Shown piece by piece: positions 2,114-17,400 of a stretch of 64,000 nucleotides of DNA. The notes beneath the pieces were generated by a model that was not told the origin of the DNA, did no database searches, and saw nothing but the letters and a program-made list of their open reading frames with translations. The DNA lies in assembly GCA_900754965.1 (NCBI GenBank), contig CAAEEO010000004.1, forward strand, positions 9,912-73,911, read 5' to 3'. The translations under genes and the position numbers were made by a program. The stretch comes from an uncultured Oscillospiraceae bacterium (GTDB lineage: Bacteria > Bacillota > Clostridia > Oscillospirales > Oscillospiraceae). How positions within the stretch are numbered: position 1 is the stretch's first letter; each line of letters begins with the position of its first letter.

Positions 2114-2296
2114 ACCTTCCGCCTGCAGGCGGCATTGGGGTCAGGGGTTTCCCCTGCAAGCGCGCAAAATGTACATTTGCGCTATGCTTGCCCAACGCCG
2201 CCCCTGGCGGCGTTGGCTCGGCCCCGCCGAAGCGGGGCCTTTTCTCATGCGGTAGGTGGTTTATGATCTGGGCAGGCAGAGCCTGCCAACTCATCG
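2114..2296. other. Candidate oriT / mobC promoter region with a dense array of GC-rich inverted repeats
   Basis: Inverted repeats: CCGCCTGCAGGCGG 2119-2132; CAGGGG-ttt-CCCCTG 2143-2157; GCGCAAA-n7-TTTGCGC 2162-2182; CCAACGCCGCC-cct-GGCGGCGTTGG 2192-2216; GGCCCCGC-cgaa-GCGGGGCC 2220-2239; GGCAGGC-aga-GCCTGCC near 2271-2287. Position upstream of mobC-relaxase is typical for oriT. The nic site was not identified. Confidence 0.4.
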
Positions 2297-2332
2297 AAAA
2301 AGAAAAATCACCGCTCTGGGCCAGAGCGGTGA
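2296..2332 (-). terminator. Rho-independent terminator (second of two after the MTase operon)
   Basis: TCACCGCTCTGG / CCAGAGCGGTGA perfect 12-bp arms (2308-2332), followed on the minus strand by TTTTTCTTTTT. Confidence 0.6.
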
Positions 2333-2416
2333 TGTCTGCCTTGCAGGCTGGAATGCTCAATATTCCTCTGACATGCTCATCTCCGTACAAGGGTGTCTAT
2401 GTTAGCACCCTGAAGG

Positions 2417-2457
2417 TTAAAAAATCCGGGCAGGGGGTCTAATGTGACACCCTGCCC
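2417..2457 (-). terminator. Rho-independent terminator after the methyltransferase gene
   Basis: GGGCAGGG...CCCTGCCC stem (2428-2457), followed on the minus strand by GGATTTTTT. Confidence 0.65.
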
Positions 2458-2513
2458 AAACTATAATATATTATCAGAAAACTCATCAACGACAATCGGC
2501 AGATAGTACGCCG

Positions 2514-3263
2514 TCACGCACCCTGGGCCAGTTCCCGCTCAATCCGTTCCTTGGACAGGGCGGCGTAGGCATCCGTAACCTCAATGCCGGTGGCGGAGTA
2601 ACCCTCCAGCACGGCAGCCAGCACCGTGCTGCCGGAACCGGCAAAGGGGTCCAGAATATGTCCGCCCGGCTCGGTGATCTTCACCACATCCCGCATGAGC
2701 TGCAAGGGCTTTTCCGTCAGGTGGATGCGGTTCTGGGGATTGCCATACTTGAATACGCCGGGCAGACAGGGGACAGGTCTGCTGATAGGCATATCCCCGT
2801 TGGAACCCCAGACAATGTACTCAGCCTGCTGGCGGAAACGGCCCTTCTGGGGACGGCTGTTGCCTTTGTCCCATACAGCGGTACCGCGCCAGATCCACCC
2901 CGCCCACTGGAGCGCATCAGTGGCTGCGGGGAGCTGCCGCCAGTCGATAAACATGCACACAGGGGCACCGGGTTTACAGACCTTGCGGGCGTCATAGAGC
3001 CATTCGGCGGCCCAGCGGGTCCAGGATCGCTGATCCTTGGAGTCGCCGTCAAAGGGAGGGGGTGCGCTTTCCCCCATGCTGGAATATTTCTTGTCGGTGG
3101 ACTTGTTTTTCTCCGCCTGGGTCCGACCCCCGGAGGCATAGGGGGGGTCGGTGATGACCGCATCGAAGGTATTAGGGGCAAACTCGCGCAGGACCTTCAG
3201 CGCGTCGCCGTGGATAATCTCCCAACTGGGACGGATCGCAGTGATGTTATCGCTCATAGGCAT
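2514..3263 (-). CDS. Orphan beta-class N6-adenine/N4-cytosine DNA methyltransferase
   Basis: Motif IV ITDPPYASGG precedes motif I DPFAGSGST. No restriction endonuclease partner nearby. Probable start is ATG 3263 (MPMSDNIT), preceded by GGAGAA. The longer track ORF to 3413 overlaps the upstream gene. Confidence 0.9.
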   Translation of the reverse strand: MPMSDNITAIRPSWEIIHGDALKVLREFAPNTFDAVITDPPYASGGRTQAEKNKSTDKKYSSMGESAPPPFDGDSKDQRSWTRWAAEWLYDARKVCKPGAPVCMFIDWRQLPAATDALQWAGWIWRGTAVWDKGNSRPQKGRFRQQAEYIVWGSNGDMPISRPVPCLPGVFKYGNPQNRIHLTEKPLQLMRDVVKITEPGGHILDPFAGSGSTVLAAVLEGYSATGIEVTDAYAALSKERIERELAQGA

Positions 3264-3840
3264 GTTTCTCCTTCTTTCCTTTGGATTGATCTTGGAGCGC
3301 GGGCAGTTCCGTCTCCACATATTCGCTGATGATACACAGCGCCTCATGATAACTGTGGCAATTCCCTCCGGTGATGCGGCCACACATCTCTTTGGCCTGG
3401 GCGCCCATGCCATGCTCCCGGAGCGTTCTGGACGCTGCCCCCATCAGGTTGAAGATGTTACCGTCTTGTTCAATCAGCGAACAGTACGGTTTCGATCGCT
3501 CCTGCTGGTGGGGCTGCTCCAGGAAACCACCCAGCCGATTGGGTACATAGTCGGACAGCCAAGTGCCTCCAAACTGGCTGTGTGTCTGAATCCGCCACAT
3601 CGCAAGCTTTCCCACATTCAGCTGAACCCCCTCAAAAGAGAACAGCAGGTTTGTGAGACCGTCGTGCTGGAATGTAGCCGCGTTTTCGAACTTGGAGCCG
3701 TTCAGCAGGATTCCTTCCTGAGTAAGCAGCTCGTTGATGCCGTCCACCCATTCCTGAAGGTCGCCGCCGCAGCCCTGGAGGATCAGCCCCTCCTCATCGG
3801 TCATGTGCCGCAAGTCCTCCGTGGTCTTTTCTCGGATCAT
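3247..3840 (-). CDS. Hypothetical protein (conserved MGE protein, function unknown)
   Basis: 197-aa ORF. ATGA start/stop overlap with the upstream gene and a 17-nt overlap with the MTase gene. No motif recognised. Confidence 0.6.
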   Translation of the reverse strand: MIREKTTEDLRHMTDEEGLILQGCGGDLQEWVDGINELLTQEGILLNGSKFENAATFQHDGLTNLLFSFEGVQLNVGKLAMWRIQTHSQFGGTWLSDYVPNRLGGFLEQPHQQERSKPYCSLIEQDGNIFNLMGAASRTLREHGMGAQAKEMCGRITGGNCHSYHEALCIISEYVETELPALQDQSKGKKEKHAYER

Positions 3841-4616
3841 TTGACCTCCTCGCGCTTGGCGCTTTTCTTTCTTCTGGGCGAAGTGCGTCCCTTCGTTTTC
3901 AAATCGGTTACCACTGGGATATCCAGTTTATTGGCGCGATGGATCTCCGCCCACATCCCTTCCGTGACCGGTCCATAGACATTGACCTGCTGGCACTTTT
4001 CTACCAGCCGAAGGCCCATCTCCCGTGCGGACTGATCCTGCACCGGATCGCCCGGATCTGCGATGGGCGGGAACATGAGATGGGGGCAGACTGGGATGTC
4101 GCCCGCCTGAAAGACTTCCTGGGCTTTCTGCCTGGCGAACGCAATGTTTTTCTCTACCTCGCCTCGGAGGGGCGCACAAATGTACACCAATTTGGGGCCA
4201 TGGTCCTTCGCCGGGACTTGAATACGGAAGGTCTCCACATAGTCGCTGGCCATTTGCCGGAGCTGCCGGTAGTCCTCCTGGGAGGGATGGTAGGCATACC
4301 AATCGATCCGGTTACCATCTACCCAAATATGCGGATCAACGCCATCCCGCAGGTAGGGGTTGTTGGGGATATTCTGTTTCCCCCATACATCCTTGAACCG
4401 AAGAGTCAGCTTGTCCACCACACCCTGGTCGTTGTCCAGCAGCGTCAGGCGGAGAGCCGCATAGTGATCCGCATGACCCAGTGTAACAAATTCAGCCCTC
4501 ACCTGACGGTTTCTGTCCAAGCCACCCAGGCAGGCACGGCCTACAAAGACCGGATCATGGATCACAGCTCCGTCCGCAAACAGTTTGCGGAGTTCCTGCT
4601 CAAAAAAGTTGCTCAT
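3837..4616 (-). CDS. Fusion protein: unknown N-terminal half plus DUF4406-like (nucleoside 2-deoxyribosyltransferase-like fold) C-terminal half
   Basis: The C-terminal KLVYICAPLRGEVEKNIAFARQKAQEVFQAGDIPVCPHLMFPP...VNVYGPVTEGMWAEIHRANKLDIPV matches my memory of the DUF4406 pattern. ATGA overlaps at both ends. Confidence 0.55.
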   Translation of the reverse strand: MSNFFEQELRKLFADGAVIHDPVFVGRACLGGLDRNRQVRAEFVTLGHADHYAALRLTLLDNDQGVVDKLTLRFKDVWGKQNIPNNPYLRDGVDPHIWVDGNRIDWYAYHPSQEDYRQLRQMASDYVETFRIQVPAKDHGPKLVYICAPLRGEVEKNIAFARQKAQEVFQAGDIPVCPHLMFPPIADPGDPVQDQSAREMGLRLVEKCQQVNVYGPVTEGMWAEIHRANKLDIPVVTDLKTKGRTSPRRKKSAKREEVK

Positions 4617-5248
4617 CTGCTCATCTCACAGCCTTTCTGTTTTTGGGGCGTGGGAGGGGACGGTTGTTGAGGAGCCAGTTCGTCTCGGGACGAATCCCGG
4701 ATCACAGAACGGTTTTTCCCGCTGATCACCAGGGTGTCCAGTGTATCGTTGCGGATTTCCTCACCGCTGATCACCAATGCGCTGCCTGTCAGACGCACAT
4801 CCCCGGATACTTTGCCATAGACCGCGCAGTGGCCGGACAGAATGGGAACGCCCATGGTATCTTTGTCATTGAGGATCATGGAAAAACCGGAGGCCCTGGC
4901 AGAGGCGCTGAGTACAGCGCCGCGTATATAGGCATTGTCCTCTACCCGCGCATGGCCGGAAAGGACAGCGCCCATAGAGATATAAGCGTTGTCGCAGACG
5001 ACCGCCTCTCCGCGCAGGACAGCCCCCTTGTCAACATAGGCGTCATTGCAGGCAATAGCATCGTCAAAGATCCATGCGGTATCGTCCGGCTCAAAGGAAA
5101 GGTTGCTCTCGCTCTCCACGAAGCCACCTAAATCACCGGCTCTGACCTCCGCACTCACATCTCGGAGTGCCCGGATACGATGAAGGAAGGGATACTTTTC
5201 GTGCGAGATCTCCGTGATCTCATATTTCTGATTGCTCGTTGTTCTCAT
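4613..5248 (-). CDS. YdcK-like left-handed beta-helix repeat protein
   Basis: 18-residue periodicity (AIACNDAYVDKGAVLRGE / AVVCDNAYISMGAVLSGH / ARVEDNAYIRGAVLS). N-terminal LHRIRALRDV..VRAGDLGGFVESESNLS resembles YdcK-family proteins. Confidence 0.6.
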   Translation of the reverse strand: MRTTSNQKYEITEISHEKYPFLHRIRALRDVSAEVRAGDLGGFVESESNLSFEPDDTAWIFDDAIACNDAYVDKGAVLRGEAVVCDNAYISMGAVLSGHARVEDNAYIRGAVLSASARASGFSMILNDKDTMGVPILSGHCAVYGKVSGDVRLTGSALVISGEEIRNDTLDTLVISGKNRSVIRDSSRDELAPQQPSPPTPQKQKGCEMSR

Positions 5249-5256
5249 CTCCTTTT

Positions 5257-6000
5257 TTATGCAGCATTTTGGAACAGACTCTCCTGCGCATCTTCCAGAC
5301 GGAACTCCGCGTCAATGTCGGAGAAGGTCTCACTGCGATTGAATTTCTCGCTCACCTTGTTGGGCAAGGCCTGCAGCTCCAACATCCGTTCCCACAGGTT
5401 TGGGTGGTAGTTATAGAGATGGCGCAGTTCTTTTCTTTTGGCGTTAGGGCAGAACCAACAGCCCCCGCGGGTTGTAAATGTGTAGACAGGCGAAAGCAGC
5501 CCTGCCCGCTGGCAGAGCTGCTTTGCATCTCCCTCTGTGCAGTTGTACTTGTCCAGTAAGGAGACCCGGTTCCCGGCCAATCGAAGCAGCCGTTCCTGCT
5601 CGTCCTTGGCGATCCCAATATACTGAACTGTGTCGGGCGGCAGCGATTTTTGGTATCGCAGGATCGGTTTCAGCTTGCAATCTCTCTGAACAGCACACCG
5701 TCCGCAGATGGGGAAAGAACGCAGAAGGCCCTTCTTGGGACCGCGGGTGATTTTGCCTGTGAAGAGATCCACATACGTTTTCTCACTGCGCAGGACGGTT
5801 ACCTTCACACCCCTGCGTTCTAAAGCCGGAATGGCGGTGGTGTAGATAAAATCTCGGTGTTCCGGCACCTCGCCGGAGATCTCCTTGTCGAACATGACCT
5901 CACAATATACTACCTCATCCAGAGGCTCCCCATGTTCCAGAGCCAGTAATATGGTGGCAAGACTGTCCTTACCAAAGGAACAGGAGGCGATATGTTTCAA
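5257..6000 (-). CDS. PAPS reductase-like PP-loop ATPase family protein
   Basis: PP-loop CSFGKDSLA near the N-terminus and C-terminal cysteines RGGCWFCPNA. Probable TTG start at 6000 forms TTGA with the metK stop. The track ATG at 6042 would overlap metK by 46 nt. Confidence 0.8.
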   Translation of the reverse strand: MKHIASCSFGKDSLATILLALEHGEPLDEVVYCEVMFDKEISGEVPEHRDFIYTTAIPALERRGVKVTVLRSEKTYVDLFTGKITRGPKKGLLRSFPICGRCAVQRDCKLKPILRYQKSLPPDTVQYIGIAKDEQERLLRLAGNRVSLLDKYNCTEGDAKQLCQRAGLLSPVYTFTTRGGCWFCPNAKRKELRHLYNYHPNLWERMLELQALPNKVSEKFNRSETFSDIDAEFRLEDAQESLFQNAA

Positions 6001-7148
6001 CGGTCCGACACACCTGCTTCCTTGATGCGACAGGCGTTGCACAGTACCTCCGCTTTGTCCGTCTGCTCCCAGGGAGCGTCCGGATGGGTAAAGTGGCCAT
6101 AGTTACAGAACTGAGCGAAGATGGGCTTGTCCAGTCCGAGGGTGTGACGCATCCCGGCGGGGGTCAGGTCAAAGACCGCCCGGACGGCCTGTTCCAGCAC
6201 ATCATCCCGGTATTCGCCGGTCCCATCGGTGTCCACGTTGACCGCCACGGGTTCAGCCTTGCCAATGGCATAGGCCAGGGCGACGGTACAGCGATCCGCC
6301 AGACCGGCAGATACAATGCTTTTTGCAATATAGCGGGCCATGTAGGCTCCGCTGCGGTCCACCTTGGTGGAGTCTTTACCAGACAGCGCGCCGCCGCCGT
6401 GAGGGGCCAGTCCGCCATAGGTATCCACCATCAGCTTGCGGCCCGTGAGGCCGGTATCCGCCTCAAATCCGCCGTAGACAAACCGCCCGGATGGATTGAT
6501 CAGGATCTCTGTATTCGTATCGGGCGGCAGCTCCCGCAGTGCGGGCTGGATCACATGGTCCATGAGTTCCGCCTGCAGCTGGCCCAGATCTTTCTCCGGG
6601 TCATGCTGGCAGGACAGAACCACCGATGCAAGACGTACGGGGATATCGAAGTTGTACTCCACAGACACCTGCGCCTTGCCGTCCGGACGCAGGCCCTGGA
6701 TCATCCCGGTTTTTCTGGCGTTGGTCAGCAGCCGGGTGAGCCGGTGGGCCAGGATGACCGGCAGAGGAAGATAGGATTCTGTCTCATCACAGGCAAAGCC
6801 ATACATGATCCCCTGGTCGCCAGCCCCGGTCTGGACTCCTTCCCGCACAGCGTGAGCAATATCATCGCTCTGATCGTGGGTGATGACCTCGATCTCATAG
6901 TCCAGCCCAGTGTACCCAGCTTCCCGGATGGTCCGGCAGACAATGGAGGGGATATCCGGCATGACCTTTGCCGAGATCTCTCCGGCCACCAGCACTTTGC
7001 CAGCTGTGGCCAGTACTTCGCAGGCCACATGGGCGGAGGAGTCACCCTTCAGACAGGCATCCAGAACAGAATCCGCGATGGTGTCGCAGAGTTTGTCAGG
7101 GTGACCCTCGGTAACAGACTCTGCGGTCAGAATGTATTTATCTCTCAT
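5997..7148 (-). CDS. metK: S-adenosylmethionine synthetase, element-borne copy
   Basis: 383 aa, full length. Motifs ESVTEGHPDKLCD, GAGDQGIMYGFA, GGGALSGKD. Confidence 0.95.
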   Translation of the reverse strand: MRDKYILTAESVTEGHPDKLCDTIADSVLDACLKGDSSAHVACEVLATAGKVLVAGEISAKVMPDIPSIVCRTIREAGYTGLDYEIEVITHDQSDDIAHAVREGVQTGAGDQGIMYGFACDETESYLPLPVILAHRLTRLLTNARKTGMIQGLRPDGKAQVSVEYNFDIPVRLASVVLSCQHDPEKDLGQLQAELMDHVIQPALRELPPDTNTEILINPSGRFVYGGFEADTGLTGRKLMVDTYGGLAPHGGGALSGKDSTKVDRSGAYMARYIAKSIVSAGLADRCTVALAYAIGKAEPVAVNVDTDGTGEYRDDVLEQAVRAVFDLTPAGMRHTLGLDKPIFAQFCNYGHFTHPDAPWEQTDKAEVLCNACRIKEAGVSDR

Positions 7149-7569
7149 AGTCAGTTTTCCCTTTCTTTTTTATGTGTTGGTCGCCAACGATCCGTCCCTG
7201 TTCTCCGGCTGCCGTTCGCACAGGAAGGATCTGCATGTTGTCGTACAGGGACTTGTATCGCTGAATCTGCTCATCCGTCAGGGAAATAAAGTCCTCCTGA
7301 CCAAGCCCAGCGATGAAGAAGGTCCCGCAGATGATGTCATAGGGCAGGCGATCTTCATCCAGCAATGGGCGGTTCATCGGCAGACCAAGGAGCTTTCCCT
7401 CAGAATTGCATACCAGGGCAACCGGCTCTTGGAACGGGTACACGGCTTCAATATCTCCGCCTACGATCCGCTGCATATCTGCGAGACTATTGATCTCCTG
7501 CACACGGCAGGGCTTTTGCGGTTCTACAACTAAGGCAATACCGCACAAATAGCGTATAGGGAGAGCCAT
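7138..7569 (-). pseudogene. DUF3846 domain protein, 5' end displaced by an IS5 insertion (current ORF starts inside the IS end)
   Basis: Present ORF is MALPIRYLCGIALVVEPQKPCRVQEIN. Removing 7534-8665 plus one CTAA copy restores ATG(8678) AAA GTA TTA GTT GTA GAA CCG = MKVLVVEPQKP, a typical DUF3846 N-terminus. Confidence 0.7.
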
Positions 7570-8665
7570 AGTAAGCTCGTCTGTAGGGCAGCCAGTATTA
7601 TCCCCTCAGTTCGCCTGGCAGGGCGCATCAACTCAGACTGCCAAGCAGGGCCTGTCAGCCAGGATCAGGTTCGCCAAGGCGAACAGCATATTCAATTTAG
7701 CGGTCTGCTTCCGCAGGCCCCGGTACCGTGTCTTTCGGTATCGGAACCGACCCTTGACGACCGCAAATACGTGTTCCACTTTAGCGCGAATAGATGACTT
7801 TTCGTGCTCTCTGCGCTTGAGCTGGCCCTGTGACCTGGCTGGTTTCTTCCTGATTTGAGAAGGGCGGCGGTTGATCCTGTAGCGGATGCTCCTTCCCTGG
7901 CGATTCCTTCGGATGCTATCCTCCCGTTTGTCCGCACCAAGATACCCGCTGTCTCCATAGACACTTTCTTCGTCACCGGTCAGCAGCTTGGAGGTCATAA
8001 CGACATCATGGGTATTGGCCCCAGTCACCTCAACGGTGTGGACCAGACCGGTATCCTTGTCCACTCCAACGTGCGCCTTGTAGCCGAAGTGCCATGTATT
8101 TCCCTTCTTCACCTGATGCGCGTCCGGGTCCCGCTGCTTTTCCTGATTTTTTGTAGAGGATGGCGCTGCAATGATCGTGGAGTCCACAATGGTCCCTTTT
8201 TTGAGGATAAGTCCTCTTTGCTGCAAAAGCTCCACTACCTGGCGGAACAGCTTCTCCTGCAGCCCATTGAGTATCAGCAGATTCCGAAAACGCCCCAGTG
8301 TATCGCCATCCGGCACCTGGTTGCTGGAGTCCACTCCGCAGAACTCCGAAAAGGCTCGGCTGTCTATGACCTCAGACACTGTTGCTTCGTCCGCCAGATC
8401 ATACAGGTTTTGCAGCAGATAGATCCTCAGCATCCGCTCCAGATCGTAGGGCTTATTGCCGCGTTCCCCCTTGTAGTAGCACGGCCTGATGAGTGTGAGC
8501 CACTCTCCCCACGGGACGATGCGTTCTATCTGCGATAGAAATTCTTTTTTCTTTGTCCGCACCTGCGCCAATTCATCGCTCAGGCCAGACAGACTTACTT
8601 GCTTATCCATGCCTATATTTTACCACACTTACCTTTATTCCGCATCTTTTCTGTGCGGTATTGCC
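7534..8665 (-). mobile_element. IS5-family insertion sequence (1132 bp)
   Basis: Perfect 14-bp terminal inverted repeats: GGCAATACCGCACA at 7534-7547 and its complement at 8652-8665. Flanked by a 4-bp CTAA direct duplication (7530-7533, 8666-8669). Single DDE transposase ORF. Confidence 0.9.
7633..8610 (-). CDS. IS5-family DDE transposase
   Basis: 325 aa. Close resemblance along its length to the E. coli IS5 transposase as I remember it (PWGEWLTLIRPCYYKGERGNKPYDLERMLRIYLLQ, IIAAPSSTKNQEKQRDPDAHQVKKGNTWHFGYKAHVGVD, SIRAKVEHVFAVVKGRF). Confidence 0.95.
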   Translation of the reverse strand: MDKQVSLSGLSDELAQVRTKKKEFLSQIERIVPWGEWLTLIRPCYYKGERGNKPYDLERMLRIYLLQNLYDLADEATVSEVIDSRAFSEFCGVDSSNQVPDGDTLGRFRNLLILNGLQEKLFRQVVELLQQRGLILKKGTIVDSTIIAAPSSTKNQEKQRDPDAHQVKKGNTWHFGYKAHVGVDKDTGLVHTVEVTGANTHDVVMTSKLLTGDEESVYGDSGYLGADKREDSIRRNRQGRSIRYRINRRPSQIRKKPARSQGQLKRREHEKSSIRAKVEHVFAVVKGRFRYRKTRYRGLRKQTAKLNMLFALANLILADRPCLAV

Positions 8666-8693
8666 CTAATACTTTCATGTGCGCTCATTCCCC

Positions 8694-9218
8694 CTATCGC
8701 TCTTTCCCACGTTGTTTCTTGGGCAATTTGGCCTGCCCGCCGCAGATACGGTTGAGTTTACTGCTCGCTTGATCCAATTCCTTAGCACAATACTCCCATG
8801 CCTGTTTTAATTTGGACAGTGGCAGTCCGTTCTGGCGGTAGCCATCCCGAATGCCCTGGTAATAATATTCCGAGGGCAGGGCGGGAGAGCGCCACCGATC
8901 CCCATCTGTCATCACGTAGGCCATGACAGTCAGCTGCCGCCCCGCATTATCCCGCACAGCAACAGACTCTTTTTCGTATAGGTGGGGATATCCCTCATAG
9001 AGATCGAGAGACCGCTCACAGCCTGGTGTGATCCGCCAAAGCAGGCCATGGACCTGCTTACCTTCCTTGGGCTGGATGGTGGCAACGCCATTTCCGCTTG
9101 CGTTGCCACGAAACAGCAGTTCATATCCCTCCAGCACGACCGGCCCCACCACCTGGGCCGCGGGACAGCGGTAGGCCATCTGATCCAGGTTGATGTTGCT
9201 GCCGTAGGCGAAATACAA
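8694..9218 (-). CDS. Gamma-glutamylcyclotransferase (GGCT/AIG2-like) family protein
   Basis: N-terminal MYFAYGSNINLDQMAYRCP plus LDLYEGYPHLYEK, typical of the GGCT fold. Confidence 0.85.
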   Translation of the reverse strand: MYFAYGSNINLDQMAYRCPAAQVVGPVVLEGYELLFRGNASGNGVATIQPKEGKQVHGLLWRITPGCERSLDLYEGYPHLYEKESVAVRDNAGRQLTVMAYVMTDGDRWRSPALPSEYYYQGIRDGYRQNGLPLSKLKQAWEYCAKELDQASSKLNRICGGQAKLPKKQRGKER

Positions 9219-9225
9219 TTTATCT

Positions 9226-9477
9226 TCAGTTATGGTCCAACACCTCCAGCACGCCGATCTTCGCCAGCGCCATGATCATGGTCTGCGCCTGTGCTTCTAC
9301 ACCGCAATCCGGCAGAATGCAGTCCTGATCCGTCATGCGGATGAAGTTGCTGCGAAGCTGCCAAATATAGCTTTCTGTGTCCGGAAACTCCGTGGGGTCA
9401 AAGGCAGCTTTCCGAAGCTGATCCATGATTTCTGTCCCGGTACCCTCGTACACGGTATCTTCAATGCGTATTTTCAT
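9226..9477 (-). CDS. Hypothetical small protein (83 aa)
   Basis: ORF with an ATGA overlap to the amidoligase stop, and 7 nt upstream of the GGCT start. No motif recognised. Confidence 0.5.
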   Translation of the reverse strand: MKIRIEDTVYEGTGTEIMDQLRKAAFDPTEFPDTESYIWQLRSNFIRMTDQDCILPDCGVEAQAQTMIMALAKIGVLEVLDHN

Positions 9478-10475
9478 CGTGCCACCTCACTGCTTCGGTT
9501 TTTCTTTTTCTTATTGACATCATAGCTGTCCTTGTCATAGCGCCATGCCCGATCCCCGTCCAAGTTGGCCAGAAGATGATCCCGCGTGTGCTTGAACTCC
9601 GGTCCATTCAACCCAAGGCGTACCAACCACACCCGGAAGGTAAACAGTTCGTTGTCACTTTGCGTTTTGCGCATGACGGTGCTGCGCTGGGCGATGGCTT
9701 GGGCCGATATGGCAACGCACAGATTCACATAAGCAGCAGCCCGGCCCGCATGGAGAGTGGAGTTAAAACAGCGAAATTCCACGGTCCCTCGGTAAAACAC
9801 AGAATGGAGATTGAGCGCATAGTACCGCGTCCAGTTGTAGTGCTCTGTACTGCCGTTGTCCCCCTCGTACCAGATGGCTTCCAGCTGTGTCAGGTTTTTG
9901 GTTTCTTCGGATGAAAGCTTGCGTGCCTTTTGCAGCATGGGTTCCCGTACCTTCTGACACCACCTGGAGGCCCGAGACTCATTGACCTGCAATGCTTTGA
10001 ACAAAATATCCTCTTTGGAATACATGATCCCGATGAGATTTTTTAGCGACTGCCGGTTGTGGTTTGCAGCATCCACATGGATGTGGATACCGCAGGAGGA
10101 ATTGACTTTTCCCCCTGCGGTGCGGACGCGGCGGACGCATTCCTGAAATTTGGGCAATTCCGCATAGGTCAGTTTGGGCGTGACCATTTCCACACGATAC
10201 CTCGGATCTGAGGTGGAGGTGTATCTGGCACCCACTTTTTGTTCTCCACGGATACTACTATCGCTCATAAGCCGCCATTCTTTGCCCATCTCATCCTTCA
10301 CATACCAGCTATCGTAGTAGTCATCGTCCCGGCGAGGCACTGTGCCAAAATAATCCGCTAAGGCTTGGGCCGCCTGTTCACGAGTAATTCCGGTCAGTTC
10401 CACTTCCACGCCGAAGCACTGATCTTTCAGTCCTACTTCATTCATGTCACTGCTCCCTTCTAAAAGATGTTTCAA
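9474..10475 (-). CDS. Amidoligase_2-family (glutamine synthetase-like) enzyme
   Basis: N-terminal FGVEVELTGITREQAAQALADYFG and CGIHIHVDA match my memory of the putative amidoligase family found on mobile elements. Confidence 0.75.
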   Translation of the reverse strand: MKHLLEGSSDMNEVGLKDQCFGVEVELTGITREQAAQALADYFGTVPRRDDDYYDSWYVKDEMGKEWRLMSDSSIRGEQKVGARYTSTSDPRYRVEMVTPKLTYAELPKFQECVRRVRTAGGKVNSSCGIHIHVDAANHNRQSLKNLIGIMYSKEDILFKALQVNESRASRWCQKVREPMLQKARKLSSEETKNLTQLEAIWYEGDNGSTEHYNWTRYYALNLHSVFYRGTVEFRCFNSTLHAGRAAAYVNLCVAISAQAIAQRSTVMRKTQSDNELFTFRVWLVRLGLNGPEFKHTRDHLLANLDGDRAWRYDKDSYDVNKKKKNRSSEVAR

Positions 10476-10539
10476 AACCTTGTAAACACTGTATCCGTTC
10501 GAAAACCGCTGATCCCGGCGAACATATCAAAATGGCGTA

Positions 10540-10839
10540 TTAGGTGATCTCATCTCCTTCCTGCTGCAGGGCAAGAAGAAAGCCGAGGACATTCTCATCC
10601 ATGTCCCCGGCCTGTGCCTGCTGGCTTTTTTCTGTTGTCAGATCTAAATGGCGCAGTTCTTCCCGGATCAGCCCCCGGATGGCGGACAACAGGGCGTCCT
10701 GTTCATGGGCTTTACAGACCATCCTGCACACGGTGTCTGTCCGCTGCCCCGCTGGGATGGAACTCAAGATGCGCCAGGCTTCCCGCTGCTGGGGCGATGT
10801 CAGAGAAAAAGAAAGGTTGAGCCGCCGCTTACCCGCCAT
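10540..10839 (-). CDS. ParR-like ribbon-helix-helix centromere-binding protein (putative)
   Basis: Small ORF immediately after parM. N-terminal beta-strand-like KRRLNLSFSL. Probable start is MAGKRR at 10839. Confidence 0.45.
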   Translation of the reverse strand: MAGKRRLNLSFSLTSPQQREAWRILSSIPAGQRTDTVCRMVCKAHEQDALLSAIRGLIREELRHLDLTTEKSQQAQAGDMDENVLGFLLALQQEGDEIT

Positions 10840-11761
10840 GGCCGACACCCCGCGACATCTGCCCCACAAGGCGCTCATATCCTTTGGCGTTCAGGGATAC
10901 GTCATCCAGTATAAGTGGGCGGCACAGACCGTCTGTGGCCGAAAGGTGGCGCTTTAAGAGCGCCGCTCCGCCGCCCAGGAAGATGGTGGGCATGGCTCGG
11001 ATGTCCAAGCCGCTTTCTGTGACTGCCGAGAGCAGGTTTCGGGCGTACTTACCTGCCTGGGCGTGGATAACCGCCCTGATTCGCTCATCCATCCCGCCGG
11101 AGCTACCCCGCAGGGCGCTCTCGATCTGAGCGGTAGTCATGGACAGCCCAAACAACCGGCGCACCTGTTCGCTGATTTCATCGACACAGCGGATCATGCC
11201 CAGTTCCAGACTCCGGCAGGAGGCAGCGTTGGGGATGCGGTTGTCCAGACGCATCAGATCCACCGTCCAGCCGCCTATGTCGGCCACGATGACGGACGGC
11301 TCGTCCAGCAGCTCCGTCTGGGTCAGGACGGCAGCATAGCCCTGGGGAAACAGGGACACCTCTTGGATGGTGATGGTATAGTCCTGCCCCTCATAGCGAA
11401 AAGGAATGGCGCTCCCATCCCGGTACAGATACGAACGGAAGGACTTCTTGTCCCGGCCAAAGCTGGTCAGGGGCAGACCCGCCGCCAGGTGGATGCTGGC
11501 GGTGTGCTCCGCACCCCGGTGCTCCAGCTCCTTGGCGATGGCTGCCAGGGTAAGCAGATAGTAGTCCTCCGTCTGAGTCTTATCTCTCTGAAGGGGCTGA
11601 CGACCGCTGCCCACCACATAGTATCTGCCGCCGCACTCCAGTACATCTTTCTGGGTGTACGGCTCGTATTCGTACTCTACTAACCCGGTGGGAAAGGAGA
11701 AGTGGACAGTTTTCATGGCTGCATAGCCATGATCCACGCCGATCACAATTACATCATTCAT
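10829..11761 (-). CDS. parM: ParM/StbA-family actin-like segregation ATPase
   Basis: 310 aa. Actin-fold phosphate motifs IGVDHGYAAMK and ADIGGWTVDL, and LGGGAALL. Confidence 0.85.
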   Translation of the reverse strand: MNDVIVIGVDHGYAAMKTVHFSFPTGLVEYEYEPYTQKDVLECGGRYYVVGSGRQPLQRDKTQTEDYYLLTLAAIAKELEHRGAEHTASIHLAAGLPLTSFGRDKKSFRSYLYRDGSAIPFRYEGQDYTITIQEVSLFPQGYAAVLTQTELLDEPSVIVADIGGWTVDLMRLDNRIPNAASCRSLELGMIRCVDEISEQVRRLFGLSMTTAQIESALRGSSGGMDERIRAVIHAQAGKYARNLLSAVTESGLDIRAMPTIFLGGGAALLKRHLSATDGLCRPLILDDVSLNAKGYERLVGQMSRGVGHGG

Positions 11762-12126
11762 CTGGTATCGTGCTCCTTCCGATCATGTTGTTTCTGAGGA
11801 TTTAGATGGTAGTTTTGCAGTATCGCTGTGTACAGCTTTTGCTCAAATGCCCGATATGCCGGTGTGGTGCGGTCGATAGGGAGAAGGACGGCCCGTTCGT
11901 AGCAGGTTCCAGGTACGATCTCCCAGCGGATGGCATGGAACTGATCCGCCAGCAGATAGCGCATGAGCTGATGACCGTTCATCAGTTCAAACATCCCGCG
12001 GGAGTCCTCATAAGGGAACTGCTTATATAGCTCAAAGCCTGTCAGCCTTTGGGCTGTGAAGTACAGCTTGAAGCCACCTGGGTCCAGTTCTGGGGCGAGC
12101 TGCTCATAGAATGTCTTTGCGTCCAT
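11758..12126 (-). CDS. Hypothetical protein
   Basis: 122-aa ORF with a 4-nt overlap to the parM start. No motif recognised. Confidence 0.5.
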   Translation of the reverse strand: MDAKTFYEQLAPELDPGGFKLYFTAQRLTGFELYKQFPYEDSRGMFELMNGHQLMRYLLADQFHAIRWEIVPGTCYERAVLLPIDRTTPAYRAFEQKLYTAILQNYHLNPQKQHDRKEHDTR

Positions 12127-12127
12127 C

Positions 12128-12547
12128 TCAACCAGCCCTTCTCCACTTTTGGGTCAGCCGTTCCAGAACAGTCAGCCTGCCGTACACTTTCCGCGCCGAG
12201 AGATCCAGCCCTTTCATCTGGTTTTGGATACGGCGGTGGATCTGCTTGAGCTGCCGCCTGTCGCCGCAGCCCTCCAGCACTACATAGCTGCCTTTTCCGT
12301 TGGCCAGCACCTCACGCCGCCCGGTATCATCCCGGAGACTGGCCATGAGCCGCTGGCCCAGGCGCTTGCGGTAGCTGTCCTGGAGGGCCTCCGCATCTCC
12401 GCACACCCCATGCTTTTTCAGGATCGCGGCGATTTGGCTGGAGTGGATATCCATTCCCTCGAACAACGCCTCCAGGATCTCCTGCTCCGCCTCTGGCGGC
12501 AGTCTGGGCGGAGCAGTCGGCTTGGCACCCTCATTTTCCCGGTTCAT
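12128..12547 (-). CDS. Hypothetical protein
   Basis: 139-aa ORF, coupled to its neighbours. No motif recognised. Confidence 0.5.
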   Translation of the reverse strand: MNRENEGAKPTAPPRLPPEAEQEILEALFEGMDIHSSQIAAILKKHGVCGDAEALQDSYRKRLGQRLMASLRDDTGRREVLANGKGSYVVLEGCGDRRQLKQIHRRIQNQMKGLDLSARKVYGRLTVLERLTQKWRRAG

Positions 12548-13041
12548 CGTTCTGCCTCCTTTCGCTTTTTTTGAGGGGAACGCGGTGTTTTTGCAGGCTG
12601 CGGATCACCGCGCCAGGTTTCCGGGGCCATGGTGTTGATATGGCGGAGCATATCCCGCACATTTGCACAGGTGAATTCCGGCTGTTCAAATCCATGGCGC
12701 TCCGTGTAGATGGTCCACTTATGGGTCTCATGGGGACTGTCCCGGATGACCACAAAATATCTCCCGTTGCGGTCACCATGCAGCGGTTCAAACCGCACAT
12801 CATCATAGAGCGGGCCGGACAGCGGGCAGTTGTTCTTGAACCAGACATAGTAATGGTCCAGGATATATGGGTCGGTGATCCCCATGACCACCTTGCTCAA
12901 CTTCTGGAGCCGTCCGGCCAGCGCGTCATCCTGACAGAACCAGTCATACCACCCGGCCTCACACTGAACGGCACGATCTTTCGAGGAAAAATCCCCGGCA
13001 CGGAACCGCTCCTGCCACTGGCGGACACTCATTTCCGTCAT
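12544..13041 (-). CDS. Hypothetical protein
   Basis: 165-aa ORF with 4-nt overlaps at both ends. Trp/Cys-rich with a basic C-terminal tail. Confidence 0.55.
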   Translation of the reverse strand: MTEMSVRQWQERFRAGDFSSKDRAVQCEAGWYDWFCQDDALAGRLQKLSKVVMGITDPYILDHYYVWFKNNCPLSGPLYDDVRFEPLHGDRNGRYFVVIRDSPHETHKWTIYTERHGFEQPEFTCANVRDMLRHINTMAPETWRGDPQPAKTPRSPQKKRKEAER

Positions 13042-13952
13042 AGCGTCCCCCTCTCCGGCAGGAGGCGCTCCATGAGGTCGGCAATGGTCCGAAACACCTC
13101 CGCCAATTCACGAGACTCTTTCACCGTATCTTCCATCTCGTCCCTGGTCATGCGGGTGCATTTAGCCCAGATCCGGACATTTTCCTCTGTGGGGTCCAGC
13201 AGGACCGCCTTTTCATACGCCTTGCAGAAGACTCCGGCGATCTTCCCCTCACGGTCGATCTCCGCGTCCTTTTCCTGGATTTCCTTTTTTGCTTTCAGGA
13301 TGTCCAGCGCCTCCTGGGCGGCCTGCTCCCGCTGCTCCTCCGGCAGATCCTCCACCTGCTTGGTGATCTGGTAGCCCTGATTGATGGACAGTTCCTTCTT
13401 GTCCAGCGCCTCCTTGACCGCTGCGGGGGCGTGCTCGTCGATCTGCATCACTTTGCCCATGGTCCGCTCACCCAGACCAACGGAGTCTGCCAGTTCTTTG
13501 CGGGTATCAACAGGAGGAAGGTTTGGCAATGTTGCCGAACCTTCCTCAGATGGGCGGTATGCCTGCCCTCCGGCAGACATATTGGCCTTGGCCCTGGCTT
13601 CGATCTCCGGCTTAAGCTTCAGGGCGATCTTGCCCAGTTCCCACTTGTCCAGGTTACGGCGGCCTTTCTGGGTGTCCAGCGCCCACTGCTTGGCCTCCAG
13701 CAGATCGTCAAAGGCGAACACCAGCATCTGATAGGGCAGGCCGTGCTTGTCGCATAAGGATTTTCGGTTATGTCCGTCAATAACGACCAGATCCTCATTG
13801 ACGATGATGGAGGTATAGCACCCATTTTTCAGGAGATCTGTCTCCAGTGCGCCGAGCTGCTCCTCGCTCAAAGGCGGGAGCAGCTCGGCCATCTCAGGCA
13901 GCACAACAGGGGTGTGCTCTGTGCTGCTGTAAATGATCCCGGTGTTCTTCAT
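13038..13952 (-). CDS. ParB/Srx N-terminal domain protein
   Basis: ParB-like core LVVIDGHNRKSLC and a predicted HTH segment (RKELADSVGLGERTMGKV). Confidence 0.8.
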   Translation of the reverse strand: MKNTGIIYSSTEHTPVVLPEMAELLPPLSEEQLGALETDLLKNGCYTSIIVNEDLVVIDGHNRKSLCDKHGLPYQMLVFAFDDLLEAKQWALDTQKGRRNLDKWELGKIALKLKPEIEARAKANMSAGGQAYRPSEEGSATLPNLPPVDTRKELADSVGLGERTMGKVMQIDEHAPAAVKEALDKKELSINQGYQITKQVEDLPEEQREQAAQEALDILKAKKEIQEKDAEIDREGKIAGVFCKAYEKAVLLDPTEENVRIWAKCTRMTRDEMEDTVKESRELAEVFRTIADLMERLLPERGTL

Positions 13953-14323
13953 CAGGCGGCCTCACACTCGCCCTGGTTCTGCTCGGCAGCGGTCGCATCC
14001 TCTGCCCGACGGGGGGAGAGGAGCTCCACCTCCGCAGCCTTGATCAGGAAGCCGGGCTGGCGGGTGGGATCGTCAGAAAAAGTGATGGTCTCGAAGTCGC
14101 CGGAGGCGGCCAGCTTGCAGCCCTTCCAGGCATAGGCAGCACAGAACTCGGCCAGGGGGCCGCGCACCTTGATGGAGATGAAGTCGGTGAGCCGGTTGCC
14201 CTCCTGATCCCGATAGCGGCGGTCCGAGGCGATGCGCAGGATGGCATAGGGCTTGCCCGTGGTTTCGTTCATCTTCAGCTCCACATCATTGGTCAGATTT
14301 CCAGTGGCAGTGATCTTCAACAT
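13952..14323 (-). CDS. ssb: Single-stranded DNA-binding protein (element-encoded)
   Basis: OB-fold N-terminus MLKITATGNLTNDVELKMNETTGKPYAILRIASDRRYRD. RBS AAAGGAGAA. Confidence 0.9.
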   Translation of the reverse strand: MLKITATGNLTNDVELKMNETTGKPYAILRIASDRRYRDQEGNRLTDFISIKVRGPLAEFCAAYAWKGCKLAASGDFETITFSDDPTRQPGFLIKAAEVELLSPRRAEDATAAEQNQGECEAA

Positions 14324-14360
14324 CGTTCATTTCTCCTTTTTCAGTTAGAATAGTTGGTTG

Positions 14361-14398
14361 TAAGAAAGAGGGGGACTCACAGCTTTTGTGAGTCCCCC
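14361..14398 (-). terminator. Rho-independent terminator directly after the adhesin stop codon
   Basis: GGGGGACTCACA / TGTGAGTCCCCC 12-bp stem (14370-14398), followed on the minus strand by TCTTTCTT. Confidence 0.7.
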
Positions 14399-14404
14399 AA
14401 GGGC

Positions 14405-17400
14405 TTAATACCCCGTCCGGGGCAGGGTGGGAATGACGGGCTTGCCGTACACCGTGGTCACCCAGCGGCTGATGGCCTGCACCCACTGGCCGTTATAGAC
14501 ACCACCCACGTCGGCCACATTGACAAACGAGGTGGAGGCCAGGTTGGCCACGGCGGTGCAGTGGAGGTACGGCTTTTCTACCTGGGCAAAGCCAGCAGGG
14601 GCCTGTCCAAAGACGAACATGACCTCTGTGACCCGTTCATTGCTGGCAAGGCCCAGTGCGGTGGCCGAGGCAGCCAGGGTGTAGTTCTTGCTGGTGGACA
14701 GGTTGTCTGCCAGGGTCCGATACTCGCCGCCGTTCACACGATAGGTGATCTTATAGGTGCCGGGGAAGTTATAGGTTCCGGTGACTACCGTATCCAACCG
14801 AACCTCTGCGGGAAGGGTATCGCGCCAATAAAAGTTGTCCAGCCGGATGTTGGAATTGTTGGCAATGCCGGAGAACGTATAGCGCACCGGCTGGCCCGCC
14901 ATGATCTCCTTGGGGCCGGTTTTGGTAATGGACACGCCGGTAGTCAGGCTCTTGTTGGTCACCTCAAATTTGACGATCTGTCCCTCATGTTCCAGATAGG
15001 CGGTGAGTTCCGTTTCATTTACGCCGTAATTGGCCGGAGCCTTGACCTCCCGGATGGTATAGCGGGAGAGAGGCAAAGGTTTGGACACGGCCAGCCCTCG
15101 GCTGTCGGAGCGGATGGTGTCCACTAGATTACCCGCCTTATCATAAATCTCAAATACGGCCCCCTCCAGCAGCGTTCCGGCAGGCAGGCCGTTGGTGGGG
15201 TTGTAGTCGGCAGACTTCTTGACAATCTGGATCTGGCCTGTGATGGCCCGGTTTTCCCAGGTGATTTCCGTGGTCTCGCCAGGCTTTATATAGACGGTTT
15301 TCAGCTGTTCGTCTACGATGTAGCCCTCGTTCTCCAGCTCCCGCAGATACACCTTGCCAGACAGCTCCAGGGTGTCAATGTAGGCGTATCCGTTCTGGTC
15401 GGTGGTGAACTGATCCACCGGATTCATGTTGCTGTCATAGAGCAGGAAGGTCACGCCGTAAATGCCCTTTCGGGTGTCTGCGTCGATCTTGTGCAGCAGG
15501 ATGCCGGAGAATGCCTTGTTGGTCACAGTCTTTCTGGTGATCTCCCCATCCTTTACGGTGAAGTAGATGGGTGTGGGGTCCAATTTGAAGGTATCCGGGC
15601 AATCGGTTTCCACGGCATAGTAGTTGTCAGCCTCCAAGGGCAAGAACACTTTTCCATCCTTCCCGGTGGTCACAGTGTCCACCAGAGCGTCGTCGCTGAC
15701 GCGGCGGATTTCAAAGGTGACGCCGGAGATGGTTTCCGTTTTATCTGCCTCATTGACTTTGGTAAACTCCACACCGCCTACCGGTGAATTGTAGAACCAG
15801 AGTTCCTGTGTATCGTCCGGGTTGACCACCACCGTCTGGCTCTGGGTGTTGGGGTCGATGGTGTACCCAGGGATGCTTTCCACTTCAGTTACTACCACTG
15901 TGCCGGTGATGCCGGAAAGGACGATCTGCCCCTCCGCATTGGTCCAGTACAACCCGTTGGAGGACAGCTTGCCGCCCTCGTCCGGCAGGTAGGAGCCGTC
16001 CGCATAGGTGATCTTGAATTGCACCCCCTCCAGCGGGGTCTTGTCCTTACTGGACAGCTTATGGATGATAAGATTTCCCAGGGGTTGATTGCGGAACTCC
16101 ACCGTGACGGTCTGGCCTTCCTTGACTTGGACGGTTTGGGGGGTATCGTCCAGCAGATAACCCGGCTTGGCACGGGTTTCCTTGATGACCAGCGTGGTCC
16201 CAGGTTCTACCCCTTCCACCAGGAAAGTGCCGGTGCTGTCTGTCACGAACTTGCCGTTGGCATCACCCACCACGGAGCCGTCCGATTTTGTCACTAGGAA
16301 CTCTACATTACTCAAGGGGCTGTTGTCTGCGCTGGACACCTTCTTCACCAAAATGGCCCCCTTGGGGGCATTGGAGAAGTAGAGGGTTACGATGTCCTGG
16401 TCCTCGCCGGAGATATAGAAGGACTGGGGCGCGGCGTCGATCACGTGGCCGCTGTCGCTCTCCATCTCCTCGCAGATGTAATAGCCCTTTTTAAGTCCGG
16501 TGACGGTGAAAGAGCCGTTGGCCGAAGTCGTGTAAGTGCCGATCACAGTGCCGCCGCTGCCGCTGACCTCGCCACCCAGGTATTTCAGCTGGAAGCGGCA
16601 GCCGGAGATCCCAGCTCCAGTCACGCTATCCTGCTTGTAAACCACCAATGCAGACAGGGGCGTGTTTGGAATGGTTACAGTCTTATTTTCGCCGCCCTTG
16701 ACGTAGACCTCTGTAACAGGGTCATCCGGAAACTGGTAGCCGGGGGCTGGCTTGGTCTCTTTGATGGTCAGCCAGCCGTCCTCGATGCCCTCCAGGATGA
16801 TCTGACCCGCCTCGTCTGTCTGGAAGGTCCCCAGGTCCCGCTGTTCCCCAGTTTCCGTCTTATTGCTGGACCATGTGATGTGAAACTCGGCGTACTGGAT
16901 GGGGTCATGGGTGACGGAGCTTTCTTTCTGGATGGTGACGGTGGGCCGCTTGTGGTTTTCAAAATACACATCCCGGTCCCGATTGGGATAGAGGGTGACT
17001 AACTGGGGGTCTGCATCCGGGAGGTAGGGAGACGGGACGGACTTTTCAATCACCTCGTACACCTCGGGCATGAGGTTGGAGACAGTGGCAGAACCATCCG
17101 GCCCAGTGGTTACTTCGGCCACAGAATGTCCGTCCGCGCCCTTCACCAAGAACACGGTGCCGGGGACCGGCGCGCCGGTATCGGCGTCGTGCTTCCAGAT
17201 GGTCAGGTTGGGCCGCTTGTCATTTTGCAGACAAATCGTGGCATCTTTACCGGGGAACAGCTGCACATGATACTCTGTGGGGTCCAGGATATGGTCCGAT
17301 ACTGTGGTAACCTCTTGCAGGGAATAGACGCCAGGTTCCAGACCCTCCCAGGTGATCTCTCCTGTGCTGGAGGTGATGCGATCCAAATATCGAGAGCCGT

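Follow-up and report, generated by a model that had tools for sequence, protein, structure and literature searches.

An Amidoligase_2 enzyme, an orphan acidic protein and a GGCT-fold enzyme encoded together in an integrative conjugative element of gut Oscillospiraceae

The 64,000-nt stretch of DNA analysed here, hereafter the window, comes from an uncultured Oscillospiraceae bacterium (GCA_900754965.1, contig CAAEEO010000004.1, positions 9,912-73,911 of the forward strand) and carries what is, by its gene content, an integrative conjugative element (ICE) of Oscillospiraceae of the Flavonifractor/Intestinimonas type. Three genes of this element lie head to tail on the minus strand and, judged from their junctions, form a translationally coupled unit that encodes an Amidoligase_2 protein, an orphan acidic protein of 83 amino acids (aa) and an enzyme of the gamma-glutamylcyclotransferase (GGCT)/AIG2 fold. 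Across the sequences surveyed, the amidoligase-GGCT pair emerges as a widespread core, to which the small protein has been added in particular lineages as a clade-specific third component. The interpretation tentatively favoured here, by analogy with characterized relatives of the two enzymes, is that they may form a write-and-erase pair served by a small partner of the ligase, expressed early in a newly entered cell and acting on a host molecule to favour establishment of the element.

Architecture and distribution of the cassette

The stop codon of the amidoligase gene and the start codon of the small open reading frame (ORF) share an ATGA, with a Shine-Dalgarno sequence (GAGGTGG) upstream, and the TGA of the small ORF is followed by a 7-nt spacer and then by the TTG start of the GGCT gene. 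Both junctions were read directly and bear out the coupling and spacing described in a first-pass annotation of this DNA; all three ORFs are likewise found on the minus strand where that annotation had placed them (Table 1). The TTG start of the GGCT gene was also chosen by an independent gene caller in a near-identical metagenomic contig (L186; loci carrying relatives of the cassette are given L numbers throughout). The start proposed earlier for the amidoligase needs revision: the open frame does extend over 333 aa (9474-10475) to a TTG at 10475, but translation most likely begins at the ATG at 10445, since this codon carries a GGGAG ribosome-binding site, homologues are 320-323 aa long and gene callers give a protein of 323 aa. 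Compact junctions recur in almost all of the approximately 85 triad loci measured. The median dN/dS ratios of 0.14 for the amidoligase, 0.26 for GGCT and 0.31 for the 83-aa protein, approximate values with dS near saturation, indicate purifying selection on all three genes.

Relatives were collected with an amidoligase profile from one genome per GTDB species, where more than 584 stretches encode a relative and the best 80 (60-98% identity) were classified, and likewise from IMG/VR, where the best 80 matches were classified. The genome set comprises 71 full triads, 3 contigs cut off directly behind the small ORF, 3 loci in which GGCT immediately follows the amidoligase (L079, L092, L093) and 3 that are rearranged or truncated. 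The IMG/VR set is composed of 61 loci bearing the pair only, 10 with the amidoligase alone, 4 truncated loci and 5 triads, all five being ICE-like and at least 81% identical. Synteny in other elements, the lack of which the first-pass annotation would have counted against its view of the triad, is therefore strong, at 71 of the 80 genome loci. That annotation had also asked whether the 83-aa ORF always accompanies the pair; it does so in these 71 triads, but most pairs, phages especially, lack it. In Blautia phage NatCom_2932 the amidoligase gene is followed by GGCT with no gene between, in Terrisporobacter phage TPDSL_ph1 only a 30-aa ORF separates the pair, and an AIG2-amidoligase pair is also present in Arthrobacter cluster AL phages; DUF4314 lies near the pair in the first two, both annotated gut phages. 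Approximately 7,000 clusters (90% identity) match the amidoligase at E<=1e-5, with single clusters of up to 3,252 sequences.

The hosts of the classified genome loci are Oscillospiraceae and their relatives, including Flavonifractor, Intestinimonas, Lawsonibacter, Pseudoflavonifractor, Oscillibacter, Butyricicoccus and Christensenellales. The region of the window is 96-97% nucleotide-identical to Flavonifractor plautii ATCC 29863 and Intestinimonas massiliensis, and the amidoligase protein is 95-98% identical in isolates of Flavonifractor, Intestinimonas, Lawsonibacter and Pseudoflavonifractor (L014-L019 compared with window positions 2343-14500). Such near-identical loci across four genera indicate very recent transfer between genera, by an element that appears to be actively moving within the gut community. 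Matches in metagenome-assembled genomes assigned to Sutterella (L052) and Hydrogenedentota (L087) probably reflect errors of binning. Nucleotide searches of plasmid and phage collections with positions 8600-10600 returned no match.

Beyond the close ICE clade, the triad is found in a more distant ICE (L099-L101) and the small protein in a series of divergent loci. L102 encodes the amidoligase, the small protein and GGCT; L098 encodes a phage-like amidoligase, the small protein, an unknown 122-aa protein, and GGCT. A 61-kb phage contig (L104) presents a lysis cassette, the amidoligase, the small protein, a 55-aa ORF, GGCT and then a MoxR AAA/VWA pair (7541-10185). A prophage (L189) bears, in order, a diversity-generating retroelement, endolysin, holin, amidoligase, small protein, GGCT, a 69-aa ORF, an ADP-ribosylglycohydrolase and, at the end, a serine recombinase, and L190 has the same core gene order. 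The ADP-ribosylglycohydrolase gene after GGCT lies at 6935-7933 of L189 and 3377-4339 of L190. In L103 the amidoligase and small protein are followed by a RES-domain protein (1790-2479) instead of GGCT, and the short contig L105 retains GGCT followed by the small protein. The small proteins of L098, L102, L103, L104, L189 and L190 share only 23-33% alignment identity with that of the window and are still encoded directly after the amidoligase, and each of the most divergent members of the small-protein family adjoins an amidoligase, a GGCT or both. In temperate phages the cassette sits between the lysis genes and the integrase, an accessory region, and the neighbours of phage versions are conflict-type genes, including ADP-ribosylglycohydrolase, RES, MoxR/VWA and DNA methylases.

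The ligase, the cyclotransferase and the small protein

The assignment of the first enzyme to Amidoligase_2, made in the first-pass annotation from the motifs FGVEVELTG and CGIHIHVDA, is upheld: the motifs are present, and the protein matches PF12224 far above the cutoff (E=2.8e-66; 224.3 bits, cutoff 22; model positions 2-244 of 245) and PHROG 2443 (E=1.8e-86). Residues E14-x-E16, E86, H121-x-H123, R207, N212, H214 and E223-x-R225 are invariant from ICE to phage amidoligases (down to 39% identity), a pattern expected of carboxylate-amine ligases of the glutamine synthetase (GS)/gamma-glutamylcysteine ligase type, by which the enzyme looks active. The E-x-E of the first strand, the H-x-H and the E-x-R of the last strand are presumably catalytic, an assignment taken from knowledge of the family and not from a structure. 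In a Foldseek search, the AlphaFold2 model (pLDDT 74.8) finds glutamine synthetases and gamma-glutamylcysteine ligases as its top PDB matches, which are weak (E=2e-3, probability 0.98, TM ~0.36), and a sequence search of the PDB found no relative among solved structures. Ligases with the GS fold use ATP to activate a glutamate-type carboxylate, which is then joined to an amine.

Enzymes of the GGCT fold cleave gamma-glutamyl amides by cyclization to 5-oxoproline. The GGCT-fold protein of the cassette, also correctly named in the first-pass annotation, exceeds the cutoffs of both PF06094 GGACT (E=3.1e-15; 57.2 bits, cutoff 22.8) and PF13772 AIG2_2 (E=3.6e-10; 40.6 bits, cutoff 27) and matches PHROG 2520 (E=2.2e-37). 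Its closest relative of solved structure is the human gamma-glutamylcyclotransferase (E=2e-12). The sequence YFAYGSN aligns with human LYFAYGSN, so that the YGSN substrate-binding motif is kept, and the Glu of LYEGYP, taken as the catalytic one, aligns with the human Glu that is Gln in PDB entry 3cry. The active site thus appears intact and the enzyme looks active.

The 83-aa ORF belongs to a real orphan protein family, far beyond what chance would yield, given its 312 homologous clusters at 90% identity (nearly all of 82-83 aa), its median dN/dS and a confident AlphaFold2 model (pLDDT 89.9). The model comprises a beta-hairpin, three helices and a short C-terminal strand, and its last residues form a flexible end (pLDDT 55). 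The protein is acidic, with a pI of 4.3. The family is narrow, as a profile search of 1.84 billion representative proteins returned only 164 relatives, many of them fragments. The window protein has no match in Pfam, NCBIfam, PHROG or PADLOC, and 33 divergent members scanned one by one against Pfam gave no match, the PP-binding family included. No match, and no acyl carrier protein (ACP), was found in the PDB by sequence profile or by fold (350,542 chains), and fold matches in BFVD are restricted to unnamed phage proteins of 79-103 aa (TM ~0.7). Comparison by hhalign revealed no homology of the small protein to the amidoligase or to the amidoligase paralogue described below. A tblastn search of the phage collection gave one match, an unannotated 4.6-kb faecal 'bacteriophage' fragment, while the plasmid collection gave none, and single divergent members used as queries found no relatives in IMG/VR. 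One metagenomic protein, P0241 (198 aa), is a tandem duplicate: its ORF holds two small-protein domains, which share 41% and 56% identity with the window protein and are joined by a linker of ~30 aa; the other apparent fusions of the domain to longer proteins were rejected as assembly chimeras or frameshifts with neighbouring genes.

The first-pass annotation had guessed that the small ORF encodes a tagged substrate or a carrier. Within the close ICE clade many residues of the protein are invariant, Ser35 among them. Across the whole family, conservation is limited to the core residues G11, I16, Y36, A63 and L70 and a loosely acidic C-terminal end (GALE[IV]LE[DE]...), with no conserved Lys, Ser or Cys; position 35 is elsewhere G, E, A, D or N. 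This speaks against both an acceptor side chain at a fixed position and a phosphopantetheine carrier, and the guess loses weight in these two forms. The C-terminal ends are acidic in nearly all members (..LEDG, ..LEE, ..IEED), and the last residue and the length of the tail vary. Butirosin biosynthesis offers one model of a carrier: BtrI is a carrier protein, BtrJ an ATP-dependent gamma-glutamyl ligase and BtrG a GGCT-fold enzyme that removes the gamma-glutamyl protecting group. The three-part logic is alike: one enzyme ligates a gamma-glutamyl group, another of the GGCT fold takes it off as 5-oxoproline, and the third component is small and acidic, at ~85 aa. BtrJ is, however, an ATP-grasp enzyme and the cassette ligase GS-like, and BtrI is a phosphopantetheinylated four-helix ACP, a type of protein defined by an invariant Ser where helix 2 begins, whereas Ser35 is not kept throughout the small-protein family and no ACP fold or PP-binding match was found; identity with an ACP or peptidyl carrier protein of the BtrI kind was rejected on these grounds. 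A LysW-type carrier model was likewise rejected on its defining features.

A looser version of the same idea would have the ligase modify the acidic C-terminal end of the small protein, or use it as an activated carboxylate in the manner of PafA-Pup or LysX-LysW, with GGCT trimming the product later. The protein is indeed small, acidic and folded with a flexible acidic end, and its gene always follows that of the ligase directly. The GGCT reaction cannot, by established enzyme chemistry, cyclize a Glu whose alpha-amine is held in a peptide bond, and so would not release a linkage of the Pup or LysW type; the C-terminal residue and tail length vary, no Lys, Ser or Cys is conserved family-wide and most amidoligase-GGCT pairs lack the small protein. 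This alternative is accordingly judged rather unlikely. In its favour, PafA, the Pup ligase, is reported to be linked in evolution to the bacterial carboxylate-amine ligases (PMC3511204). Pup-PafA-Dop likewise unites a ligase of carboxylate-amine lineage, a small acidic protein and a reversing enzyme. Pup is disordered and ends in an invariant GGQ or GGE, whereas the 83-aa protein is confidently folded with a variable end, and a Pup-like identity was rejected for this reason. The eraser of the cassette would moreover be of the GGCT fold and not a paralogue of the ligase, and no proteasome genes are linked to it.

A phage counterpart argues for a different kind of association between the small protein and the ligase. 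On a neighbour-joining tree of the amidoligases, drawn without bootstrap support, the enzymes associated with the small protein form one clade, at least 53% identical to that of the window, and the pair-only phage clades are separate. Pair-type loci carry, just upstream of the active amidoligase, a gene for a protein of ~250-290 aa (for example, L011 4110-4874, L013 3896-4624 and most of L112-L180), which hhalign aligns with the amidoligase over its full length (probability 99.8, E=1.8e-29). This paralogue has lost the E-x-E and H-x-H motifs and is likely a pseudoenzyme. Of 60 pair-only loci, 54 carry it; of 74 triads, none does. Because the position of the small protein is kept through deep divergence and because it and the pseudo-amidoligase are mutually exclusive, the small protein may plausibly be a functional, non-catalytic partner of the ligase. 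A Lys/Arg-rich C-terminal tail of ICE-type amidoligases was considered as its dock and rejected, since L079 has the tail without the small protein and L098 and L102-L104 have the small protein without the tail.

The small ORF could instead be an independent gene with no relation to the enzymes, such as an acidic anti-restriction or DNA-mimic protein, inserted a single time between the coupled enzyme genes and co-inherited thereafter. A pI of 4.3 is shared with many anti-restriction proteins of leading regions, which are themselves mosaics of small genes (PMC11541004); the pair occurs without the small protein in most phages and in L079, L092 and L093, and the amidoligase tree is compatible with a single acquisition. 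A passenger would nevertheless hardly be expected to keep its place after the amidoligase at 23-33% identity in backgrounds as unrelated as an ICE leading region, a prophage lysis-integrase interval and a RES locus, with an amidoligase or GGCT in every context examined, nor to exclude the pseudo-amidoligase, nor to come from so narrow a family (164 representatives). Such a passenger is considered distinctly improbable. One pair-only locus, L092, is nested inside the small-associated clade of the tree and its state is an apparent secondary loss of the small protein.

Setting of the cassette in the element

Every gene from 360 to 22980 is on the minus strand. In the order of transcription, this block opens with a Toprim primase, a 302-aa ORF, a sortase, a 1725-aa SpaA/thioester adhesin, a single-stranded DNA-binding protein (SSB), a ParB-like protein and three small ORFs; it proceeds through a ParM-like actin, a 112-aa ORF, the triad, an insertion sequence (IS), DUF3846, S-adenosylmethionine (SAM) synthetase and a PAPS-reductase-fold (SspD/DndC-like) protein; and it ends with a hexapeptide acyltransferase, DUF7768, a 197-aa ORF, an N6/N4 DNA methylase, a hairpin region of 400 bp, NikA/MobC and the relaxase. 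On longer contigs the relaxase is followed by DUF3801, a YpsA/DprA-like protein and a coupling protein of the TraG/VirD4 type. The order from the methylase through the triad to the ParM-like, ParB-like and SSB genes is conserved in L001, L003, L007, L015 and L099.

Table 1. Positions in the window of the cassette genes and of other features of the element
Feature	Coordinates	Strand	Remarks
Amidoligase_2 gene, 323 aa	9474..10445	-	PF12224, PHROG 2443
Orphan 83-aa acidic protein gene	9226..9477	-	Between ligase and GGCT; ATGA overlap with amidoligase stop
GGCT/AIG2-fold enzyme gene, 174 aa	8694..9218	-	PF06094, PF13772, PHROG 2520; TTG start
Relaxase	360-1766	-	
NikA/MobC	1766-2113	-	
Candidate origin of transfer (oriT) region, hairpin-rich intergenic	2114..2513	.	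Between N6/N4 methylase gene and mobC-relaxase
PAPS-reductase-fold gene	5257-6042	-	PHROG 424; weak PADLOC SspD match (E=7e-9)
SAM synthetase (MetK)	5997-7148	-	
DUF3846 ORF	7138-7569	-	
IS	7534..8665	-	DDE_Tnp_1/DUF772 transposase (7633-8610); Pfam, and breakpoints against F. plautii L014 without IS
112-aa ORF	10540-10878	-	Overlaps end of ParM-like gene; no family match
SSB gene	13952..14323	-	PF00436, E=7e-13; far end of co-oriented block
1725-aa surface protein and its sortase	14405-20463	-	Between SSB and primase
tRNA-Pro (CGG)	23292-23367		

Leading regions of conjugative plasmids are described as anti-defence islands beside oriT, where SSB, orphan methyltransferases and many small unknown genes are encoded in a single orientation (PMC11541004; Samuel et al., Nature 2024). 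The element of the window agrees with them in gene content and orientation; it differs in being a Gram-positive ICE, with a candidate oriT. By definition, such a region flanks oriT on the side away from the relaxase and type IV secretion system (T4SS) genes, and its genes are so oriented that the transferred strand serves as template. In the element, the SSB, ParB-like, orphan methylase and MetK genes all point toward the hairpin-rich interval that lies upstream of mobC-relaxase, the relaxase/T4SS operon runs away from this interval, and the coupling-protein gene lies past the relaxase. The layout around the triad is thus leading-region-like, and from this we infer both leading-region status and the direction of transfer. 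Within the hairpin-rich interval are six inverted repeats, among them perfect GC-rich palindromes of 13, 11 and 8 nt; if oriT lies there, the triad would be approximately the 8th to 10th gene to enter. The location in a leading region proposed in the first-pass annotation thus fits in gene content and orientation, but it is not exclusive, since the cassette also occupies accessory regions of temperate phages.

The IS adjoins the downstream end of the GGCT gene and is not part of the cassette. Compared with L014 of F. plautii, it landed ~10 nt inside the DUF3846 coding sequence, with a 4-bp overlap that is an apparent target duplication, and the DUF3846 ORF of the window therefore begins with IS-derived codons; the same insertion is found in metagenomic contig L187. 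The 1725-aa surface protein, with 13 SpaA repeats, a thioester domain and its own sortase, is presumably a mating adhesin. The tRNA-Pro gene lies between the last element gene (22501-22980) and chromosomal-looking genes (an M23 peptidase at 23481 and a radical SAM protein at 25049) and is probably the integration site of the element; no integrase is found in the window. The window and L014 lack a C5 DNA methylase gene, and in them the amidoligase gene comes directly after the conserved 112-aa ORF, which, from its position, may encode the ParR-type adaptor of the actin-like segregation pair. In most relatives a C5 DNA methylase gene stands directly before the amidoligase gene, with overlapping stop and start codons in several (L015 4880-5999; L001 8366-9031; L003 7848-9014; L099 3773-5038). 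The MetK and PAPS-reductase-fold genes accompany the triad in most related elements, MetK in 60 and the PAPS-reductase-fold gene in 48 of the first 97 loci, and may have a connection with the orphan methylases or with some modification of DNA.

These neighbours raise the possibility that the cassette is part of a pathway of DNA base hypermodification that shields the element from restriction, acting with the methyltransferases, SAM synthetase and PAPS-reductase-like protein. The C5 methylase gene that immediately precedes and overlaps the amidoligase gene in most relatives would suit such a pathway, as would the DNA methyltransferase genes found two to three genes upstream in phage versions, the MetK and SspD/DndC-like genes of the same block, and the co-occurrence of amidoligase genes with thymidine-hypermodification clusters in viral metagenomes (PMC8989533). 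Yet the triad is intact in the window and L014 without a C5 methylase, the prophage versions L189 and L190 have no methylase nearby, and among the element genes scanned with Pfam there is none for a 5-hmU kinase, an aGPT-pyrophosphorylase, a dUMP hydroxymethylase or a TET/JBP protein, so that this explanation is considered very improbable.

A proposed write-and-erase function and its alternatives

In the favoured interpretation, by analogy with characterized members of its fold, the amidoligase would turn a carboxylate of the glutamate type into an activated acyl-phosphate and couple this with an amine, so that a gamma-glutamyl amide results, and GGCT would break this amide by cyclizing the glutamyl group to 5-oxoproline and releasing the amine. 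On a target that bears an amine, one enzyme would thereby write (or build) what the other erases (or trims). The 83-aa protein would serve as a dedicated non-catalytic partner of the ligase, whether as a specificity or regulatory subunit or possibly as a protein substrate, and would fill in its clade the niche held by the degenerate pseudo-amidoligase in phage-type versions. The cassette would be expressed with the long co-directional operon of the leading region soon after DNA entry and would act on a host molecule to favour establishment, by counter-defence or host takeover. We infer each of the gamma-glutamyl chemistry, the interaction of small protein and ligase, the early expression, the target and the biological role.

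In a more specific form, the cassette would be a counter-defence or host-takeover module in which, as soon as the DNA has entered, the 83-aa subunit guides the ligase to gamma-glutamylate or otherwise amidate a specific host protein or an amine-bearing immune signal, GGCT resets or edits the modification, and the small protein and pseudo-amidoligase are interchangeable targeting subunits; in this detail the proposal is unlikely. None of the three proteins matched the defence models of PADLOC-DB 2.0 at E<=0.01.

An alternative held to be about as unlikely as that specific form is that the cassette makes or remodels a small metabolite or envelope precursor. The product could be a gamma-glutamyl amine or polyamine, a derivative of the peptidoglycan stem peptide or a secondary metabolite resembling a peptide, and the role would be to exclude competing elements or to take over host metabolism, in place of counter-defence. 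Characterized GS-fold enzymes mostly join glutamate to small amines, the human enzyme that is the closest solved relative of GGCT acts on free gamma-glutamyl amino acids, and a sortase and a large surface adhesin are among the other products of the element. For the related phage systems, the 2009 prediction discussed below is summarized in later papers as cell-wall modification preventing superinfection or as the production of secondary metabolites. Against these points, none of the loci examined links the cassette to a transporter, a signal peptide or a gene of envelope biosynthesis, and its constant neighbours are DNA methylases and other conflict-type genes.

Several observations weigh against the write-and-erase interpretation itself. 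If the ligase makes the very bond that the cyclotransferase breaks, the pair would run a futile cycle unless the two are separated in time, target or purpose. The substrate class of the amidoligase is extrapolated from its fold, as the searchable literature yielded no experimental function or activity for any Amidoligase_2 enzyme; the first-pass view that the pair has no established substrate or role agrees with this. The three parts are not strictly obligate, given that the small protein is dispensable in the nested pair-only loci L079, L092 and L093 and that a RES-domain protein replaces GGCT in L103. The mutual exclusivity of the small protein and the pseudo-amidoligase is essentially a two-clade pattern and not the outcome of many independent events. 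The oriT is here a candidate interval, the supplementary family tables of the leading-region survey (PMC11541004), in the part accessible, list no amidoligase family, and a scan of 7400-11000 found promoter and terminator signals no stronger than expected from shuffled sequence, a result that is also consistent with membership of the triad in a long operon.

The pairing of the two enzyme families has a history. Iyer, Abhiman, Burroughs and Aravind, in Mol Biosyst in 2009, reportedly predicted neighbourhoods of Amidoligase_2 and AIG2/GGCT genes in phages and mobile elements of Firmicutes. Several citing papers trace the amidoligase-AIG2 pairing to Iyer et al. 2009, in keeping with the first-pass annotation, which had presented the pair as an earlier comparative-genomics prediction. 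The window shares with that pair the adjacency and common direction of the same two families on Firmicutes mobile DNA, and differs from it in the orphan 83-aa gene between the enzymes, the lack of a degenerate paralogue and the setting in an ICE leading region. A cluster of the phiEco32/LUZ24/PaP3 type (COOH-NH2_lig, Amidoligase_2, class II glutamine amidotransferase, ATP-grasp and AIG2) likewise places Amidoligase_2 and AIG2-like genes in the early region of a mobile genome (PMC3890496). A report of fimbrial modification in Klebsiella was set aside as a related case, as its enzyme is of the ATP-grasp type and not Amidoligase_2. Apparently without precedent are the make-up from three components, the small orphan protein with its clade distribution and its mutual exclusivity with the pseudo-amidoligase; a third partner that varies (GGCT, or RES at one locus) and the ADP-ribosylglycohydrolase beside the triad in two prophage loci; and the leading-region placement in gut ICEs of a very widespread family. 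The pairing of an active amidoligase with a degenerate one in pair-type loci also seems not to have been described before.

This amidoligase clade is one of the commoner uncharacterized gene families of the human and animal gut. With a defined three-gene unit and a candidate non-catalytic partner that has a counterpart in phages, the prediction of 2009 gains a sharper and testable form, for which the natural loss and replacement variants of the cassette could serve as controls, and the leading-region and prophage-accessory settings hint at when and where a phenotype should be sought. If the cassette is indeed an establishment factor that modifies a protein or metabolite, the leading regions of Gram-positive ICEs, whose repertoire is mostly of the inhibitor type, would gain an enzymatic mechanism.

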